Part shown: positions 1-43,300 of the stretch, one piece after another
Numbering within the stretch: the first letter of the stretch is position 1
Layout: every line of letters starts with the position of its first letter
From: Eledone cirrhosa
Lineage: Eukaryota
Length of the DNA stretch: 64,000 nt
Assembly: GCA_964016885.1 (NCBI GenBank)
Contig: OZ024743.1
Span: 334,366,001-334,430,000, forward strand
Direction: 5' to 3'
Translations under genes and position numbers: made by a program
The notes under the pieces: generated by a model
Databases searched by the model: none
What the model saw: the letters and a program-made list of their open reading frames with translations, nothing else
Told to the model about the DNA's origin: nothing

Positions 1-3000
1 CTCCTTCTCTATATCCCATTCTCTCACCCTCCTTCTCTATATCCCATTCTCTCATACTCCTTCTCTATATCCCATTCTCTCACTCTCCTTCTCTATATCC
101 CATTCTCTCATACTCCTTCTCCATATCCCATTATTTCACCCTCCTTCTCTATATCCCATTCTCTCACCCTCCTTCTCTCTATCCCATTCTCTCACCCTCC
201 TTCTCTATTCCATTCTCTCACACTCCTTCTCTAGATCCCATTCTCTCACCCTCCTTCTCTATATCCCATTCTTTCACCCTCCTTCTCTATATCCCATTCT
301 CTCACCCTCCTTCTCTATATGCCATTCTCTTACCCTCCTTCTCTATATGCCATTCTCTCACCCTCCTTCTCTGTATCCCATTCTCTCACCCTCCTTCTCT
401 ATTCCATTCTCTCACACTCCTTCTCTAGATCCCATTCTCTCACCCTCCTTCTCTATATCCCATTCTTTCACCCTCCTTCTCTATATCCCATTCTCTCACC
501 CTCCTTCTCTATATCCCATTCTTTCACCCTCCTTCTCTATATCCCATTCTCTCACCCTCCTTCTCTATATCCCATTCTCTCACCCTCCTTCTCTATTCCA
601 TTCTCTCACACTCCTTCTCTATATCCCATTCTCTCACCCTCCTTCTCTATATCCCATTCTTTCACCCTCCTTCTCTATATCCCATTCTCTCACTCCCCTT
701 CTCTATATCCCATTCTCTCATACTCCTTCTCTATATCCCATTCTTTCACCCTCCTTCTCTATATCCCATTCTTTCACCCTCCTTCTCTATATCCCATTCT
801 CTCACCCTCCTTCTCTCTATCCCATTCTCTCACCCTCCTTCTCTATCCCATTCTCTCACACTCCTTCTCTAGATCCCATTCTCTCACCCTCCTTCTCTAT
901 ATCCCATTCTTTCTCCCTCCTTTTCTATATCCCATTCTCTCACCCTCCTTCTCTATATCCCATTCTTTCACCCTCCTCCTCTATATCCCATTCTCTCACA
1001 CTCCATCTCTCTATTCCATTCTTTCACACTCCTTCTCTATATCCCATTCTCTCACACTCCTTCTCTATATCCCATTCTTTCACACACCGTCTCTATATCC
1101 CATTCTCTCTCCCTCCTTCTTTATATCCCATTCTCTCACACTCCTTCTTTATATCCCATTCTCTCACACTCCTTCTCTAGCCCATTCTCTCACACTCCTT
1201 CTCTATATCCCATTCTCTCACACTCCCTCTCTATCCCATTTTTCACCATCCTTCTCTATCCCATTCTCTCACACTCCTTCTCTATCCCATTCTTTCACCC
1301 TCCTTCTCTATCCCATTATCTGACACTCCTTCTCTAGCCCATTCTCTCACACTCCTTCTCTATATCCCATTCTCTCACACTCCTTCTCTATATCCCATTC
1401 TCTCACCCTCCTTCTCTATCCCATTCTCTCACATTCCTTTTCTATATCCCATTCTCTCACTCTCCTTCTCTATATCCCATTCTCTCACCCTCCTTCTCTA
1501 TCCCATTCTCTCACCCCCTTCTCTATATGCCATTCTCTTACCCTCCTTCTCTATATGCCATTCTCTCACCCTCCTTCTCTCTATCCCATTCTCTCACCCT
1601 CCTTCTCTATTCCATTCTCTCACACTCCTTCTCTAGATCCCATTCTCTCACCCTCCTTCTCTATATCCCTTTCTTTCACCCTCCTTCTCTATATCCCATT
1701 CTCTCACTCTCCTTCTCTATATCCCATTCTCTCATACTCCTTCTCTATATCCCATTCTTTCACCCTCCTTCTCTATATCCCATTCTCTCACCCTCCTTCT
1801 CTCTATCCCATTCTCTCACCCTCCTTCTCTATTCCATTCTCTCACACTCCTTCTCTAGATCCCATTCTCTCACCCTCCTTCTCTATATCCCTTTCTTTCA
1901 CCCTCCTTCTCTATATCCCATTCTCTCACCCTCCTTCTCTATATCCCATTCTCTCATACTCCTTCTCTATATCCCATTCTCTCACTCTCCTTCTCTATAT
2001 CCCATTCTCTCATACTCCTTCTCCATATCCCATTATTTCACCCTCCTTCTCTATATCCCATTCTCTCACCCTCCTTCTCTCTATCCCATTCTCTCACCCT
2101 CCTTCTCTATTCCATTCTCTCACACTCCTTCTCTAGATCCCATTCTCTCACCCTCCTTCTCTATATCCCATTCTTTCACCCTCCTTCTCTATATCCCATT
2201 CTCTCACCCTCCTTCTCTATATGCCATTCTCTTACCCTCCTTCTCTATATGCCATTCTCTCACCCTCCTTCTCTGTATCCCATTCTCTCACCCTCCTTCT
2301 CTATTCCATTCTCTCACACTCCTTCTCTAGATCCCATTCTCTCACCCTCCTTCTCTATATCCCATTCTTTCACCCTCCTTCTCTATATCCCATTCTCTCA
2401 CCCTCCTTCTCTATATCCCATTCTTTCACCCTCCTTCTCTATATCCCATTCTCTCACCCTCCTTCTCTATATCCCATTCTCTCACCCTCCTTCTCTATTC
2501 CATTCTCTCACACTCCTTCTCTATATCCCATTCTCTCACCCTCCTTCTCTATATCCCATTCTTTCACCCTCCTTCTCTATATCCCATTCTCTCACTCCCC
2601 TTCTCTATATCCCATTCTCTCATACTCCTTCTCTATATCCCATTCTTTCACCCTCCTTCTCTATATCCCATTCTTTCACCCTCCTTCTCTATATCCCATT
2701 CTCTCACCCTCCTTCTCTCTATCCCATTCTCTCACCCTCCTTCTCTATCCCATTCTCTCACACTCCTTCTCTAGATCCCATTCTCTCACCCTCCTTCTCT
2801 ATATCCCATTCTTTCTCCCTCCTTTTCTATATCCCATTCTCTCACCCTCCTTCTCTATATCCCATTCTTTCACCCTCCTCCTCTATATCCCATTCTCTCA
2901 CACTCCATCTCTCTATTCCATTCTTTCACACTCCTTCTCTATATCCCATTCTCTCACACTCCTTCTCTATATCCCATTCTTTCACACACCGTCTCTATAT

Positions 3001-4410
3001 CCCATTCTCTCTCCCTCCTTCTTTATATCCCATTCTCTCACACTCCTTCTTTATATCCCATTCTCTCACACTCCTTCTCTAGCCCATTCTCTCACACTCC
3101 TTCTCTATATCCCATTCTCTCACACTCCCTCTCTATCCCATTCTTTCACCATCCTTCTCTATCCCATTCTCTCACACTCCTTCTCTATCCCATTCTTTCA
3201 CCCTCCTTCTCTATCCCATTATCTGACACTCCTTCTCTAGCCCATTCTCTCACACTCCTTCTCTATATCCCATTCTCTCACACTCCTTCTCTATATCCCA
3301 TTCTCTCACCCTCCTTCTCTATCCCATTCTCTCACATTCCTTTTCTATATCCCATTCTCTCACTCTCCTTCTCTATATCCCATTCTCTCACCCTCCTTCT
3401 CTATCCCATTCTCTCACCCCCTTCTCTATATGCCATTCTCTTACCCTCCTTCTCTATATGCCATTCTCTCACCCTCCTTCTCTCTATCCCATTCTCTCAC
3501 CCTCCTTCTCTATTCCATTCTCTCACACTCCTTCTCTAGATCCCATTCTCTCACCCTCCTTCTCTATATCCCTTTCTTTCACCCTCCTTCTCTATATCCC
3601 ATTCTCTCACTCTCCTTCTCTATATCCCATTCTCTCATACTCCTTCTCTATATCCCATTCTTTCACCCTCCTTCTCTATATCCCATTCTCTCACCCTCCT
3701 TCTCTCTATCCCATTCTCTCACCCTCCTTCTCTATTCCATTCTCTCACACTCCTTCTCTAGATCCCATTCTCTCACCCTCCTTCTCTATATCCCATTCTT
3801 TCACCCTCCTTCTCTATATCCCATTCTCTCACCCTCCTTCTCTATATCCCATTCTTTCACCCTCCTTCTCTATATCCCATTCTCTCACCCTCCTTCTCTA
3901 TATCCCATTCTCTCATCCTCCTTCTCTATTCCATTCTCTCACACTCCTTCTCTATATCCCATTCTCTCACCCTCCTTCTCTATATCCAATTCTTTCACCC
4001 TCCTTCTGTATATCCCATTCTCTCACTCTCCTTCTCTATATCCCATTCTCTCATACTCCTTCTCTATATCCCATTCTTTCACCCTCCTTCTCTATATCCC
4101 ATTCTTTCACCCTCCTTCTCTATATCCCATTCTCTCACCCTCCTTCTCTCTATCCCATTCTCTCACCCTCCTTCTCTATTCCATTCTCTCACACTCCTTC
4201 TCTAGATCCCATTCTCTCACCCTCCTTCTCTATATCCCATTCTTTCTCCCTCCTTTTCTATATCCCATTCTCTCACCCTCCTTCTCTATATCCCATTCTT
4301 TCACCCTCCTTCTCTATATCCCATTCTCTCACTCTCCTTCTCTATATCCCATTCTCTCATACTCCTTCTCTATATCCCATTCTTTCAACCTCCTTCTTTA
4401 TCCCATTCAC
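1..4410. repeat. 28-bp pyrimidine-rich satellite array (CTCCTTCTCTATATCCCATTCTCTCACC)n with ~1902-bp higher-order repeat
   Basis: Monomer read directly, with 26-bp variants. Diagnostic variants recur at +1902 (cacacaccgtct at 1081 and 2983; near-identical ORF translations at 319/2221 and 347/2249). Array runs off the left edge. Confidence 0.97.
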
Positions 4411-4555
4411 TCTCTCTACCTATCCTTCTCTGGAAGACATCTGCTGTGTTCAGATTTGGAGAAATGATGGCTCCGCCAGGTTTCAACTGGCTTAGAAACT
4501 CCGACTCTCAAATTGAGGCCCCTACTACTCCACCAGGAGTTACGAGTCCATACAC
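4411..4555 (+). mobile_element. 3' part of the long composite SINE, contiguous with the satellite
   Basis: ctggaagacatctgctgtgttcaga...tggctccgccaggttt matches the 3' module of SINE copies near 32365, 52835 and 56350. Confidence 0.8.
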
Positions 4556-17011: not shown

Positions 17012-17140
17012 TATGTATATACAATTGTATATATATATATATAAATGAAGTAATTCCGTCGGAAAAGTCCAGGAAAAAAGAGTGCTCTATGTAGGTAACA
17101 GAGCTTAATAGTTATGTAATAAACAACATAAGGCAATTAT

Positions 17141-17198
17141 TCCATTTACCAGTGGTTTCTTAAAAGCAAAGAATTTTGCTTTCAATCATCAGAATGAA
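17141..17198 (-). ncRNA. Type I hammerhead ribozyme motif
   Basis: UUCAUU-CUGAUGA-UUGAAAGCAAA-AUUC-UUUGCUUUUAA-GAAA-CCA-C-UGG-UA-AAUGGA. Confidence 0.85.
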
Positions 17199-17626
17199 AC
17201 AATCCTGGTCTGTTTATTCATATGGATTTTAAAAACAAAAATGCAATCTATATGAAAGTGAGGCTGGAGAAGGAAGAAGGAAAGGAAAAAAAAATAAAAA
17301 CAAAAACAAAAAAAAACAGAAAAAAAAACAAAAAACAAAAACAAAAAAATTGTAATAAAAACACACATGCAAATAGACACACACACACACACACACACAA
17401 ATGTATACATACACACATATATATATATACAAACACTCATACATACACACATACACATACATATGTGTATATATATACACACATACACATACGTATACAC
17501 ATACATACATACACACATAAATATCAACACATCCATACATACACATACATATATACAACCACACACACATATATACACACATATATATATAGAAATAGAA
17601 ATATATATATATATATATATATATAT

Positions 17627-21252
<3,626 letters not shown>

Positions 21253-21428: not shown

Positions 21429-21462
<34 letters not shown>

Positions 21463-21943
21463 GCATACATAAACACATACATAGCCATACACACATACAT
21501 ATACATACAAACATACATACACACAATCATACCTATATACACACGTACATACATACACATACATAAATGCATACATATGCATGTACAAAATTAGAAAAAT
21601 ATACACACCACTCTACATATTCACACACGCAAATAAATATAAGAAAAAAATATATAAAAAATAAAATAATAAAAACTATTATGAAGTTGACAGCGATACA
21701 GGCAACGAATAAATGAACAAACACGCGTGGTAAGCAATACACACAAATGCACGTACACATACATACGTAAAAATAAATAAATACACACACTCTCACACAT
21801 AAATATACATATGCAAATACATAAACACATACATACGCATACACAAATACATAAACACATACATACGCATACACAAATACATACACAAACACACACACAC
21901 ACACACACATATACATATATACACGCACATATACATACACACA

Positions 21944-21979
<36 letters not shown>

Positions 21980-22086
21980 CACACATACATATATACACAT
22001 ATATACATATACACACACATACATACATAGCTATACGATTATACACATACAAATACGTACATATCACAAACAGGCACAACCAAATA

Positions 22087-22227
<141 letters not shown>

Positions 22228-22237
22228 AAAACTCACT

Positions 22238-24218
22238 GATACTAATGATTGTTTTGACATAAAATCCCGTAAATATCCACCTAGAATTAAAGACATGGCC
22301 AACTTCGAATTAAACCTTGTTAATCTAATTAGTGATATCAAATTTCGTAAGTACAATAGTAACTTTCAAACTAAACTGTCTAACGATATTTCTAATTTTA
22401 GAAATTCTACAAACACCTTTGTTCTTTCTGATAAAACTAAAAATCTCTTTGAAGTTAATAGTACTTTGTATAACCAACTTTTAACTAATAGTATCACCAA
22501 CAAATATCAATTAACTAATAATAATACCTATAATACTATTAATAAAGAAGCTAAAGAACTAGCTAGCTCTTTAAAAATAGACAACCGGATTGAAAGCCTA
22601 GCTAAGCGTAAAGAGTATATATTACCCTTAAAGACCATAAATTGGACTTTACTAATCGACCTAGTTGTAGACTGATTAACCCGGCTAAATCCGAAGTTGG
22701 CCTTGCAAGTAAAAAAATCTTAAGAAAAATAATTCTCCAAATTAGAACTTAAACTGACCTATCACAGTGGCTAAATACTTCCTCTGTTATTTCTTGGTTT
22801 AATAATATACAAGGTAAAAATAAGTGTAGATTTACCCAATTTGATATTGTTGATTTTTACCCCTCTATTACTGTTTCCTTATTAACTAATGTCTTAGATT
22901 TTGCAAGACCCTTCATTAATATTTCTAAATTAGAAGAAGACATTATCTTTCATGCTAGAAAAAGTTTACTCTTTACTAATGAAAATATTTGGGTTAAAAA
23001 TTCAAACCCTGAAAACTCTTTTGATGTTGCAATGGGTTCATATGACAGTGCGGGTGTGTGTGACTTAGTAGGATTATTCCTTCTCCACACCCTCAAAGAG
23101 AAATTTCCTTCCCATAATATCGGTTTATACCGTGATGAAGTATTGGCAGTTTCTCATACCACCAACGGCCATAACCTTGATAAATTTCGTAAAGATTTAA
23201 TCAATACTTTTGCTAATCTTAACCTTAAAATCACTATAGATACGAACCTTACCAATGCTAACTTTCTTGATATTAATCTTGATCTACTTACCACCTCTTT
23301 TAAACCTTATCATAAACCTAATGAAAATCTTATGTATATACACAAAGAGTCTTGCCATCCCCCTATAGTTTTTAATAATCTTATTCCCAACATTAGCCGT
23401 AGGATTTCTACCTTATCTTCGTCTATAGACATTTTTAATAAAACCACCCCTTATTATAATAAAGCCCTTAAGAACAGCGGTTTTACAGAAAATATTTTCA
23501 TTTGCCTACCCCTAAAACTAACCACAATAACAGGACAAGGGAAATTATTTGGTTCACACCCCCCTTCTCTCTAACTGTCAAAACTAATGTAGGAAGGAAA
23601 TTCCTTGAACTCTTAGACAAACATTTTCCTCCTAATCATAGATATTATAAGATATTTAATAGGATCGTAGTTCACATCAGTTACTCTTGTTGCCCATCTA
23701 TGAAGTCTAAGATCACTAGTTTAAATCATACGAGAACAAATCCAGGATGCAGTTGCAGGAAGCCGGATGAATGCCCATTGCAGGGTAAATGTAACACCAA
23801 ATCTGTTGTTTATGAGACTAAAATAACACCGTTAATCAACAACCAGCCAGCCAGGAGTGAGCGATATGTCGGCATGACCCAGGACAGGTTTAAAACCGGG
23901 TTTTACTCACATGTCGCTTCTCTTAAGCACTCCGATAAACGAACAACAACGGCCCTCGCAAGTAAGGTGTGGGAATTCAAGGATAGTAACATCCTGTACT
24001 CTATCGATTGGTCTATCTTAGACCATTCGATGGAGTACCAAAGGGGCACAAAGAATTGTTCTTTGTGTACCAGAGAAAAATATAGGATTTTGCTAAACTT
24101 GAGAGCCACTTCTGCTTGCCTAAACTCAAAGACCGAGATCTCCAGATGTTGTCCTCATCTGAAATCACATCTGATCTGTAACTGGATTGACATTCCTATG
24201 ATAACTCAACCGCCTTGA
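22238..24218 (+). pseudogene. Penelope-like reverse transcriptase + GIY-YIG endonuclease, disrupted
   Basis: [46 protein letters not shown] (YRDD mutated), CSCRKPDECPLQGKC linker, VVYE..YVGMT..CSLC..CCPH. Frameshifts near 22620 and 23500; in-frame TAA at 22750. Confidence 0.93.
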
Positions 24219-24472
24219 ACTACTTCTCTGCTCTTTACTTCTGCTACGTTTTTTTTTACCTGCTGAATCCACGTTCTGTACTCTTTTATTCTTTTTCTCC
24301 CTTATCTCCCCTTATATTTAACCTTTTCCTATGTCATTCCCCCCTTCCTTTTCCCCCCATATATTTTTTTTGCCTTACCCTTCACATACCAAAATGTATG
24401 TGTATGTATGTGTATGTATATATATATATATATATATGTGTATATATATATATATGGATAGACCAGGTTTTT

Positions 24473-24530
24473 TTCATTCTGATGATTGAAGGCAACATTT
24501 TTTGCTTTTAAGAAACCACTGGTGAATGGA
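24473..24530 (+). ncRNA. Hammerhead motif, cleavage triplet mutated to GUG
   Basis: Same family as 25762 but reads GAAACCACUGGUG. NUG is not a canonical NUH site. Confidence 0.7.
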
Positions 24531-24623
24531 ATAATTGCCTTATGTTTTCTATTACATTACTATATATATGTATATGTATATTTTGGAGTTATATAAGGTT
24601 CATATGAATTATCTAAGATTGAG

Positions 24624-24713
<90 letters not shown>

Positions 24714-24818
24714 ATGTTTGTATTTGGTTGTGCGTGTTTGTGATATGTACGTATTTGTATGTGTATAATTGTATAGCTATGTATGTATGTGTGTGTATAT
24801 GTATATATGTGTATATAT

Positions 24819-24888
<70 letters not shown>

Positions 24889-25761
24889 ATGTATATGTGT
24901 GTGTAAATATGGATATGTGTGTGTGTGTGTGTTTGTGTATGTATTTGTGTATGTGTATGTATGTGTTTATGTATTTGTATATGTATATTTATGTGTGAGA
25001 GTGTGTGTATGTATTTATTTTTACGTATGTATATGTACGTGCATTTGTGTCTATTGCTTACCACGCGTGTTTGTTCATTTATTCGTTGCCTGTATCGCTG
25101 TCAGGTTCATAATAGTTTTTATTATTTTATTTTTTATATATATTTTTTGTTATATTTATTTGCGTGTGTGAATATGTAGAGGTGTGTGTATATTTTTCTA
25201 ATTTTGTACATGCATATGTATGCATTTATGTATGTGTATGTATGTACGTGTGTATATAGGTATGATTGTGTGTATGTATGTTTGTATGTATATGTATGTG
25301 TGTATGGCTATGTAAGTGTAAATGTATGCATATATATATATATATTTCTATTTCTCTATATATACGTGTGTATATATGTGTGTGTGGTTGTATATATATG
25401 TGTATGTATGGATGTGTTGATATTATGTGTGTATGTATGTATGTGTATATGTATGTGTGTATATATATACACATATGTATGTGTATATGTGTGTGTGTAT
25501 GTATGAGTGTATGTGTATATATATATATATATGTGTGTGTATGTATACATTTGTTTGTGTGTGTGTGTGTGTGTGTATTTGCATGTGTTTTTTTATTATT
25601 ATTATTATTTTTTTGTTTGTTTTTGTGTTTGTTTTTTTTGTTTTTATTTTGTTTTTGTTTTTATTTTATTTTTCCTTTCCTTCTTCCTTCTCCAGCCTCA
25701 CTTTCATATAGATTGCATTTTTGTTTTTAAAATCCCATATCAATAAACAGACCAGGATTTT

Positions 25762-25819
25762 TTCATTCTGATGATTGAAAGCAAAATTCTTTGCTTTTAA
25801 GAAACCACTGGTAAATGGC
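25762..25819 (+). ncRNA. Type I hammerhead ribozyme motif
   Basis: UUCAUU-CUGAUGA-11-bp stem II-GAAA-CCA-C-UGG-UA-AAUGG. Confidence 0.85.
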
Positions 25820-25869
25820 ATAATTGCCTTATATTGTTTATTACATAAATATATACATATATATATACA

Positions 25870-26900: not shown

Positions 26901-27000
26901 AATGAAGTAATTCCGTCGGAAAAGTCCAGGAAAAAAGAGTGCTCTATGTAAGCAACAGAGCTTAATTATTATTATGTAATAAACAACATAAGGCAATTAT

Positions 27001-27058
27001 TCCATTTACCAGTGGTTTCTTAAAAGCAAAAGGTTTTGCTTTCAATCCTCAGAACGAA
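27001..27058 (-). ncRNA. Type I hammerhead ribozyme motif
   Basis: UUCGUU-CUGAGGA-UUGAAAGCAAAA-CC-UUUUGCUUUUAA-GAAA-CCACUGG-UA-AAUGGA. Confidence 0.82.
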
Positions 27059-27359
27059 AAAATCCTGGTTTGTTTATTGAATTTGGATCTTAAAAACAAA
27101 AAAAGCAAGCTATATGAAAGTGAGGCTGGAGAAGGAAGAAGGAAAGGAAAAAATAAAAACAAAATAAGACTACCCATACAACCACACATACACGAAAACA
27201 CACACACACACACACACACGCGCATGTGTATGCGCGCACGCACGCACGCGTATACAAATATAAATATATTTCTCCCATACACATGTGTGTGCGTGCATGC
27301 GCGCATACGCGCAGGGTATGTTCTGTTGAAAGTGTCTCGTGAATTTATGGCTACAGTTT

Positions 27360-28861: not shown

Positions 28862-28920
28862 CTCATCCTGAAGATTGTATGAAAAATTTTTTTGCTTTTA
28901 AGAAACCCTTGGTAAATGGA
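28862..28920 (+). ncRNA. Hammerhead motif, stem II degenerate
   Basis: CUGAAGA..GAAACCCUUGGUA-AAUGGA at the same position in the element as 24473. Confidence 0.6.
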
Positions 28921-29704: not shown

Positions 29705-30243
29705 TTTGTATGTTTGTTCTTAGAGGAACAAAGGCAGACAGATTTCTGTATTCAGATTGGAGTCAATCCTTATCATTGGCTTTCTCTTTAGCTTACAGGT
29801 GTCTGTATGATCAGTATGGGGTCAGTCATGGTAGATAGTTTTGGAGGAAGGGGAGATTCCTTAAAAGCTAAATTCTTAAAGGTTCTAGTATATTGACGAA
29901 GGTTTAGGGAATTCTGTGGACAATTTCTAAGTATAATCTATACAACCGTAGCCATAAATTCACGAGACACTTTCAACAGAACACACCCTGCGCGTATGCG
30001 CGCATGCACGCACACACATGTGTATGGGAGAAATATATTTATATTTGTATACGCGTGCGTGCGTGCGCGCATACACATGCGCGCGCGTGTGTGTGTGTGT
30101 GTGTTTTCGTGTATGTGTGGTTGTATGGGTAGTCTTATTTTGTTTTTATTTTTTCCTTTCGTTCTTCCTTCTCCAGCCTCACTTTCATATAGCTTGCTTT
30201 TTTTGTTTTTAAGATCCAAATTCAATAAACAAACCAGGATTTT

Positions 30244-30301
30244 TTCGTTCTGAGGATTGAAAGCAAAACCGTTTGCTTTTAAGAAACCACTGGTAAATGG
30301 A
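30244..30301 (+). ncRNA. Type I hammerhead ribozyme motif
   Basis: UUCGUU-CUGAGGA-stem II-GAAA-CCACUGG-UA-AAUGGA. Confidence 0.82.
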
Positions 30302-30418: not shown

Positions 30419-30608
30419 CGAAGGAATTGTGGTAAGGAACCAGATGGACCATAACGCACCAAAGCACTCAATACTTAGGGTAGTAGAGTGGGTAATAGGA
30501 ACAAGTAAGAGCCCTACGGCAGAGCTCAAGCCGTTTCGACGGCTATTTCTGGAGTCCAGAAATAGCCGTCGAAACGGCTTGAGCTCTGCCGTCGGGGTCT
30601 TACTTGTT

Positions 30609-30613
<5 letters not shown>
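30417..30613. mobile_element. Palindromic insertion (59-bp arms, centre 30554) with ~78-bp one-sided tail
   Basis: 30495-30553 / 30555-30613 are near-perfect reverse complements between (TA)n tracts. Arms carry the 3' half of a hammerhead. Confidence 0.8.
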
Positions 30614-36740: not shown

Positions 36741-36776
36741 ATATATATATATAGGTATTAAGGTGCATATATATAT

Positions 36777-37439
36777 ATGAGGACATTCCGGACAAGAGAC
36801 CGAGAGACCATGTTGACACTATGGAGGATATTTGTCCTAAGCCGCTTGGACTATTGCTCCCTGCTGTGGTCAACCCATACTGTCAAACTAACCATGGAGC
36901 TTGAGACAATCCAGCGAAGCTACACCAAAAGGATTGCCACGATGAAGGAGATAAGCCACCGGGAGAGGCTAAAAGAACTGAAACTCTACTCCTTGGAAGG
37001 AAGGCGGGAGAGATACGCAGTGATATACATGTGGAAAATCCTGGAGGGACTAGCACCAAACTTTGGCATTGGGAGCTGGACCAACCCCCGAACAGGACGT
37101 CAATGTGTGTCTTCCACATCTAGAATAAGGAGCAGATATTGCAATAGACTGGGGTTCAAGGGCTCTCAACTCTGCAACAAGCTGCCGAGGGATCTGAGAG
37201 ATCTGCATGGTGTGGACGTGAATGTTTTCAAGAAACATCTCGAGACCTTGTTATCCAGGATCCCGGATGAGCCCACAGCAAGGCACGAGGGAAACCTAAG
37301 GGGGACAGCAACGATCTCTCTCTTACACCAGTGGCCAACCAATACAGGCTGTAGATAAAATGTGTAGCAACAAGGGCGGTGCCCCAGCTTGGCCTCAGTC
37401 GGATGGCTGGAACAGGTAAAAGAGTAAAAGAGTAAAAGA

Positions 37440-42620: not shown

Positions 42621-42779
42621 AGGAGAAGACTATTGCCATTCGTCTTAACCATTCCGTGACGTCCTAAAACACTCCAGATGTGGTCATCCTTTCCCACACA
42701 TAAATTGAAATCTCGAAAAAGCAAGATCTTATCTGAGTCTGGAATCGATGTTATACACCCTCGTAAATCTATCCAGTAA

Positions 42780-43300
42780 TGAAAAGTCCTCTTGACAGAG
42801 GGCCTCTTAGGTGCATAATTCGATCACTAATGCCTTGTGGTGGTTCCAGTCGCTTTGTGTCCCCTACCCGGACAGCCAATCCTACTCCTCCATTTAGTTT
42901 CCCTTTCCAGAAGAACAGATAACTAGGACCTCTCTCTGATAAATGACCTTCTCCACTAAAACAGGTTTCAGATAGTGCAGGTATATCAATATTATACCTA
43001 CACAATTTTCTGCCAACAATAGCAATCCTGCGTTCTGGATTTGTCGATGGCTCCATGTCAAGAAGTGTTCTTATGTTCCATGTCACAACATTCAGTGCAA
43101 TTCTATTCTTTAGAAAATCACTATTCTTCTTGTTTTTCCTGCCGGTATAGTCAAACATCAGCTGCAGGTGGCTGACCAGCTTGATGGTGGAAGAGACAAT
43201 GTTTGGGTCACCTTTTCTAGACCTATCCTAGTTTTCTCCCTTGAAAGAGCTGCTCAGTCACAAAAGACTCCGCCTAAACCTATTCTGAAAACTGGCAATG
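42780..43300 (-). mobile_element. RTE/BovB-like LINE 5' fragment (APE endonuclease)
   Basis: VVTWNIRTLLD..PERRIAIV..RYNIDIPALSET..YLFFWKG..GVGLAV..ISDRIMHLR. Confidence 0.85.

Follow-up and report, generated by a model that had tools for sequence, protein, structure and literature searches.

Multi-hammerhead Terminons were reportedly described by Arkhipova (2017), and Lunse (2017) is said to have described dimer cleavage of hammerheads from Penelope-like elements (PLEs). The function of PLE hammerheads is called unclear in the available part of a broad PLE survey (PMC8557442), where a size of <3 kb is typical of Hydra-clade PLEs without being a strict limit, and where the family Hydra-1_Obim has the stem III ACCA-A-UGGU, with the same layout in the published Hydra-clade motifs. 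In the part of its File S2 at hand, 25/25 Hydra families carry one sense hammerhead, none of them with G at the cleavage site. According to the accessible text of PMC11167929, hammerhead cleavage is dispensable for insertion in vitro and uncut RNA is the main substrate. The window analysed here, by which we mean the whole 64-kb stretch of DNA, was originally predicted to hold two copies of a Naiad-like element, each with a pair of same-strand hammerheads bracketing a microsatellite-like spacer. A genome-wide search (3.0 Gb) led us to the view that the downstream motif (H2) is the normal terminal one and that the upstream motif (H1) probably derives from a truncated end of the same element, inserted into TA repeats in the tail; most H1 copies are predicted not to cut.

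Architecture of the two copies

The features of the window that concern the two copies are as follows.

17041..17624 (-): copy 1, inverted 5'-truncated arm with part of the spacer, anchor a4, H2 and a ~70-bp tail (17041-17112)
21447..22179 (-): copy 1, remainder of the inverted arm (a2-a3 region), 90.6% to 24646-25345
22236..24218 (+): copy 1 ORF, 5'-truncated, with stops and frameshifts; RT then C-terminal endonuclease, CxCX5C linker, CxxC/CxH (Hydra clade by motifs)
24219..24390 (+): copy 1 U3, the unique pyrimidine-rich start of the 3' UTR
24457..24560 (+): copy 1 H1, probably derived from the element's own 3' end by 5' truncation, flanked by (TA)n
24473-24530 (+): H1 hammerhead of copy 1, core at 24479, G at the cleavage position 24524, GUG at 24522-24524
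24561..25749 (+): copy 1 spacer, the microsatellite-rich 3' UTR between H1 and H2, found in H1-less copies too
24572-24628, 24715-24785, 25030-25210, 25665-25748 (+): family anchors a1, a2, a3 and a4 of the copy 1 spacer
25762..25819 (+): copy 1 H2, terminal (pLTR) type I hammerhead, core at 25768, GUA at 25813
25820..25849 (+): copy 1 short 3' end, reaching (TA)n ~36 nt past the cleavage position
26901..27358 (-): copy 2 inverted arm with H2 and tail, 98.5% identity
27439..28645 (+): copy 2 (subfamily B, the youngest), 5'-truncated ORF and U3
28862..28920 (+): copy 2 H1 (subfamily B), core and GUA retained, stem III palindrome changed
29716..29990 (+): 275-bp unique block, fixed in the subfamily B spacer
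30244..30301 (+): copy 2 H2, intact, GUA at 30295

Both copies share the usual layout of an inverted truncated arm with tail, followed by a truncated ORF with its 3' region and a short end, and the window thus described holds six hammerhead motifs: four plus-strand motifs, and two minus-strand ones within inverted arms. The copy 1 inverted arm is split, with another inserted element between 17041-17624 and 21447-22179. The same-strand pairs proposed at the outset were borne out, with CTGANGA cores at 24479, 25768, 28868 and 30250 and spacings of 1289 and 1382, as were the three shared anchors (24612/28989, 24748/29219 and 25683/30164), which proved to be family-wide. The view that the repeats are element cargo also held. 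The order ORF-UTR-H1-anchors-H2 recurs across the genome: both motifs were parsed in 67 of 99 3'-UTR-bearing copies (L001-L100 plus the window), at a median spacing of 1440 bp (range 373-3339), and the remaining copies with a UTR start either were interrupted, by the end of the locus, a deletion or a later insertion, or were without H1. These loci are best BLAST matches or exact-pattern matches, in which young copies are over-represented.

Elsewhere in the window, a different PLE lies at 19837-20910 (-), within the copy 1 inverted arm, with a GIY-YIG match (PF01541, E 9.5e-7), a 97% inverted repeat (17660-18097 / 20811-21252) and long microsatellite tracts. A short inverted pair with one arm extended further sits at 30420-30613, flanked by (TA)n tracts, while positions 1-4412 are ~160 copies of a 28-bp satellite and positions 32000-62400 hold numerous dispersed repeats of 100-350 bp at 70-90% identity. 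The ORF pieces at 36762-37358 and 42769-43227 we take to be LINE-like.

Host element

Judged by its motifs, the host of the paired hammerheads is a Hydra-clade Penelope-like element with a C-terminal endonuclease, and not the Naiad-like element first proposed, for which an N-terminal endonuclease and no canonical hammerhead would be expected. Translations read across several broken copies give a single ORF in which RT is followed by a C-terminal endonuclease-like region, with the RWK and DKT motifs (KRMRWKA and LSDKTKN in L024, L026 and L031), a CxCX5C linker (CSCRKPDEC) and the C-terminal CxxC (CSLC) and CxH (CPH). Insertion into (TA)n and a canonical-type hammerhead near the 3' end are further hallmarks of the Hydra clade that we find here. 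The assignment rests on motifs, because a Pfam search of the host ORF pieces returned no RT or GIY-YIG match and nothing informative. From its long UTR the unit reaches ~3.9 kb as a sum of parts, which exceeds the typical Hydra-clade length.

In four head-to-tail copies (L024, L028, L031 and L057) there follow, after H2, a tail of ~70 bp, a short 5' UTR and an ATG, and therefore H2 is the pLTR ribozyme. Insertions end in two ways, either at (TA)n ~36 nt past the cleavage position or after the tail, which is the PLE tail signature; by the rule that we applied there were 48 tail, 42 TA and 19 other 3' ends. Twenty loci first retrieved with H2 alone were mostly clipped ends of 100-150 bp, frequently as inverted pairs. 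One full-length copy (L028:3469-3860) has a single hammerhead, an H1/H2 hybrid from which the spacer is gone. A sister Hydra family, family C, was seen at L101-L120 with 82-85% in the ORF and 1528 first-look candidates.

Hammerhead structure

Each motif in the window is predicted to fold with a stem I of 5-6 bp, CUGANGA, a 10-bp stem II closed by U-A and not G-C, GAAA, and a 3-bp stem III. H2 has the CUGANGA, GAAA, NUH and three helices of a type I hammerhead. In the flagged H1 (24479) the cleavage triplet at 24522-24524 is GUG, and this motif is predicted to be uncleavable because GUG violates the NUH rule, which bars G at the cleavage position (PMC2238771). In the H1 of copy 2 (28862..28920) stem I has lost its first pair and stem II 2-3 of its pairs. 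Stem III (ACCA-C-UGGU) is a dimer-type palindrome, with a predicted energy of -8.2 kcal/mol for the duplex vs +0.4 for the monomer hairpin. The dimeric active site that had been suggested for the pair finds agreement in this predicted palindrome. The family C hammerhead retains the core and stem III, with several stem II pairs altered and 8/10 still pairing.

An Rfam search of 25700-25845 found no hammerhead even at E values of up to 10, and a search of the whole window none among the matches listed (150 of 216), so that the ribozyme call rests on the core motif, the predicted fold and the likeness to published Hydra-clade motifs. The Rfam miRNA matches in the window were dinucleotide-repeat artefacts. 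A conserved ACCAG upstream of stem I (25750-25756) is complementary to the stem III CUGGU (25807-25812), making an alternative pairing possible, and its ACCA part occurs in family C too.

Conservation of H1 and H2

The two motifs differ sharply at the cleavage position (position 17), which was G in 38/43 H1 vs A in 53/53 parsed H2 (55 found) among the first 60 loci and the window, and over 140 loci H2 had A in 130/130 scored copies. The expected conservation of the pair did not hold up, as only H2 is conserved: it was intact-looking in 77/100 and 26/30 parsed copies (140 loci), H1 in 22/29 parsed copies that are neither G nor subfamily B, in 0/40 G copies (by definition) and in 0/26 subfamily B copies. 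Pairing in subfamily B was 0.76 (stem I) and 0.74 (stem II) for H1 vs 1.00 and 0.98 for its own H2, while in GUG copies the H1 core was kept about equally to the H2 core (34/40 vs 86/100). Genome-wide exact patterns of H1 followed by a1 numbered 22 for GUA (intact-type), 79 for GUG and 72 for the broken-helix B-type, each count a lower bound. Subfamily B, the family of the second window copy, has ~40 matches 96-99% identical to copy 2 and the shortest terminal branches on the tree. At core position N7, L043, L046-L048, L058 and L078 have G in H1 as well as in H2, with flanking H1-specific bases persisting; a T-to-G change in both motifs of one lineage is accounted for by a relic H1 only with conversion or parallel change.

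Origin of H1

H1 is a probable ~105-bp 5'-truncated copy of H2 within a (TA)n tract. Its start lies a few bases before the conserved ACCAG and it ends at the short end, the same borders as the family's clipped insertions. Five ORF-anchored copies are without H1 and have in its place a segment X of ~750 bp, whose marker has 52 exact matches genome-wide (24 viewed). Among 118 a1 anchors, 76 followed U3-H1, 15 followed X without a hammerhead, 3 followed X-H1 and 1 followed a4-H, the other 23 being truncated or with other insertions. In L061 (two copies) and L067, X is accompanied by an H1 that hardly differs from H2 and occupies the (TA)n tract left empty in L042 and L057, and later copies without X have a deletion ending beside the (TA)n tract of H1. 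The empty site, the filled site, the truncated-insertion borders and the later states can therefore all be observed and counted, as the genome holds the full series of spacer without H1, H1 in that site, GUG-H1 and H1 with broken helices. Self-insertion recurs, with further family ends inside family UTRs at L046, L126 and L139; a scan for such ends flagged 4/84 UTRs, though L041 and L074 among them represent H1 variants.

Trees of the ORF end rooted on family C comprised 64/99 copies over 600 bp and 44/105 over 940 bp, the remainder being too short. In both, H1-less copies branched deepest, followed by GUA-H1, the GUG clade (96/92, starred) and subfamily B (100/99, starred), with a second G17 in L056 within the GUA group. 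The node joining H1-bearing copies was unstarred and moderate (83/74 and 89/72), the root hangs on one or two long outgroup branches and the bootstrap of the 44-copy tree was not fully settled. Family C has one hammerhead, a homologue of a4 and its own long microsatellite UTR in 4/5 loci, the fifth being interrupted. The ACACCA state upstream of H2 is common to family C and the H1-less copies, and H1 begins with a derived AGACCA. We take H1-less to be the ancestral direction because the outgroup family C is single-hammerhead and shares ACACCA with the H1-less copies. Subfamily recombinants were also present, namely U3-H1-X in L129, L130 and L138 and the spacer-less H1/H2 hybrid in L028.

The copy 1 spacer has a GC content of 25.5%, with purines and pyrimidines alternating at 74%, and is likely an older 3' UTR, plain cargo rather than a mobile RNA circle. 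Segment X holds the end of another TA-associated element, the same as at 30560-30613 of the window (score 52 vs a shuffle maximum of 22), and the subfamily B spacer gained its 275-bp block (29716-29990). This block is 75% similar to a stretch at L059:1086-1317 and is without an open frame. Anchor a4 (25665-25712), also conserved in family C, is a run of pyrimidines closed by CAG/TAG and looks like a splice acceptor lying just upstream of the pLTR hammerhead.

We propose that, because the family targets (TA)n and its own long 3' UTR is (TA)n-rich, its own ends and other TA-targeting elements would land there, and that one clipped end may have inserted in the UTR of a master copy and become fixed in the master lineage. 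Reverse transcription would still begin just downstream of H2, with H1 and the spacer carried as cargo; these RT start sites we infer solely from DNA ends. H1 would then have drifted, or been pushed, to inactivity, the cleavable A giving way to G before the helices broke, with H2 keeping its structure. In favour of selection against H1, G17 appears twice on the tree and A is back only in the broken-helix lineage, but intact-H1 copies have reached 22 places or more, which speaks against such selection, as does the dispensability of cleavage in vitro (PMC11167929). The picture is complicated further by subfamily B, where in a swapped dimer the H2 core could still pair with the GUA strand of H1.

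Alternative explanations

It could be argued that a self-inserted H1 was retained as an enzyme-only partner, such that in a domain-swapped dimer the H1 core cuts the H2 GUA while GUG-H1 itself stays uncut. We regard this as unlikely, although several observations speak for it: the palindromic stem III favours the duplex (as predicted), the core and helices of GUG-H1 are intact, G17 arises twice on the tree (in the main clade and in L056) and in 0/130 H2, and dimer cleavage is described in the available parts of PMC4209133 and PMC7229834. However, the H1-less subfamily (52 exact marker matches) and family C spread without H1, the H1 helices of the youngest subfamily are broken and stem II breaks are found already in the GUG copies L043, L078 and L080, so that this reading suits the GUG stage and not the H1-less copies or subfamily B. 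Moreover, copies in this young lineage lie ~1-3% from their nodes, and little decay is expected regardless. If it were true, a lone element could cut its own RNA once at the 3' end without a tandem copy, having obtained a dimer partner from a transposition accident. Least probable of all is that two hammerheads are ancestral and H1-less copies arose by deletion between (TA)n tracts. Such TA-tract deletions are common at these loci (L039, L049 and L077) and root support is moderate, but the depth of the H1-less copies in both trees, their sharing of ACACCA with family C against the derived AGACCA of H1, and the near-identity of H1 to H2 in intermediate copies all argue otherwise.

In the original prediction, cleavage at both motifs frees a UG/UA-rich RNA of ~1.2-1.4 kb, which circularises and is mobile by itself; this we now hold to be very improbable. 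It draws on the intact-looking H1 of 22/29 parsed non-G non-B copies, on the fact that a circularised unit would restore one whole hammerhead, and on the retrozyme circles established in the accessible part of PMC7229834; on paper, the subfamily B H2 core could also pair with the H1 GUA strand. A re-inserted circle is expected as a4-H-a1, and three genome-wide scans (gaps of 116-200 nt, both a1 variants, ~62% per-copy sensitivity derived from 106/132 and 69/90) gave 0, 0 and 1 a4-H2-a1 junctions; these scans detect re-inserted circles, and circles forming without re-insertion escape them. The single junction (L139, gap 162 nt), whose recovery in the third scan serves as a positive control, was considered as a rolling-circle dimer and rejected, as was L126, because in both the units are closer to other loci than to one another. 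In L139 an H1-less element is joined with a B-like end that differs from it by 10.8% (rank 112/131), a nested chimera, and L126, with units 5.2% apart and one of them 1% from another locus, reads as a nested insertion. Thus the ORF-less tandem arrays anticipated for the unit did not materialise in these scans, nor did tandem units with a complete hammerhead each, as in non-LTR retrozymes. No pile-up of 5' truncations at the H1 cleavage position was seen in a small sample; ORF-less pieces begin at scattered points, one of which, in a GUG copy, is 2 nt away from the cleavage position. The unit is far longer than retrozyme consensuses, reported at 51-972 bp, G17 is found in the flagged copy and in 79 pattern matches, where it breaks the NUH rule, and the spacer exists without H1, and with these the double excision of a mobile RNA finds no support in the flagged copy. 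Excision is possible only in the minority subfamily with two intact-looking motifs (22/173 pattern matches), and perhaps in B via swapped pairing. We therefore retain self-insertion of a clipped end as the origin of H1, in an element that behaves as an ordinary hammerhead-bearing PLE and not as a retrozyme.

Relation to known systems

The family offers matched natural variants on a near-identical backbone in which the internal ribozyme is absent, intact, uncleavable or misfolded (all predicted states), and these would allow direct tests of internal cleavage as a burden on transposition and of cis dimerisation between adjacent motifs. The family further suggests how a microsatellite-targeting element may enlarge its own 3' UTR by trapping insertions and then seed microsatellite-like DNA genome-wide. 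Two intact motifs around non-coding DNA would be a plausible starting point for a retrozyme, and here none seems to have arisen. In our literature search, whose scope included few subscription papers, no PLE was described with a second, self-inserted hammerhead in its 3' UTR, and the part of PMC13282606 at hand mentions neither Hydra nor ribozymes. The host is of a known kind, a Hydra-clade member by motifs.

Similar to the Hydra clade as presented in the available part of PMC8557442, with Hydra-1_Obim as the nearest named family, the element has the same RT and C-terminal endonuclease, RWK, DKT, CxCX5C, CxxC and CxH, the same (TA)n targets and a type I hammerhead with an ACCA-N-UGGU stem III, and its N-terminus is like that of Hydra-1_Obim, compared by eye only (MDLYELDYSIKNIPTPSN vs MDLHNIGYSFKNIPTPSN). 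It differs in its ~3.9 kb, with a 1.6-kb microsatellite-rich 3' UTR, against complete consensuses of 2.1-2.7 kb, and in the second same-strand hammerhead, which is absent from all 25 File S2 Hydra families. The Naiad clade, again from the available part of that paper, likewise targets (TA)n, forms insertions both inverted and in tandem and has a tail, but its endonuclease is N-terminal and it has no canonical hammerheads, unlike the element here. The two alternative 3' ends downstream of the hammerhead are also the tail signature of Poseidon PAc (Frangieh et al. 2024, PMC11167929, accessible text), in comparison with which RT start sites are read here from DNA ends only. A further described hammerhead system has the same type I motif with long stem II and palindromic stem III (predicted dimer) and many truncated solo copies and inverted pairs, but its same-strand pairs flank the ORF ~3 kb apart, whereas here the extra motif lies within one 3' UTR and is degenerating. 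Finally, metazoan non-LTR retrozymes (PMC7229834; 10.64898/2026.07.22.740005; available parts) have the same type I direct-repeat hammerheads around non-coding low-GC DNA, in short ORF-less tandem units with a hammerhead in each; unlike these, the unit here is 1.2-1.4 kb long, ORF-linked and not arrayed, with its first motif mostly disabled.
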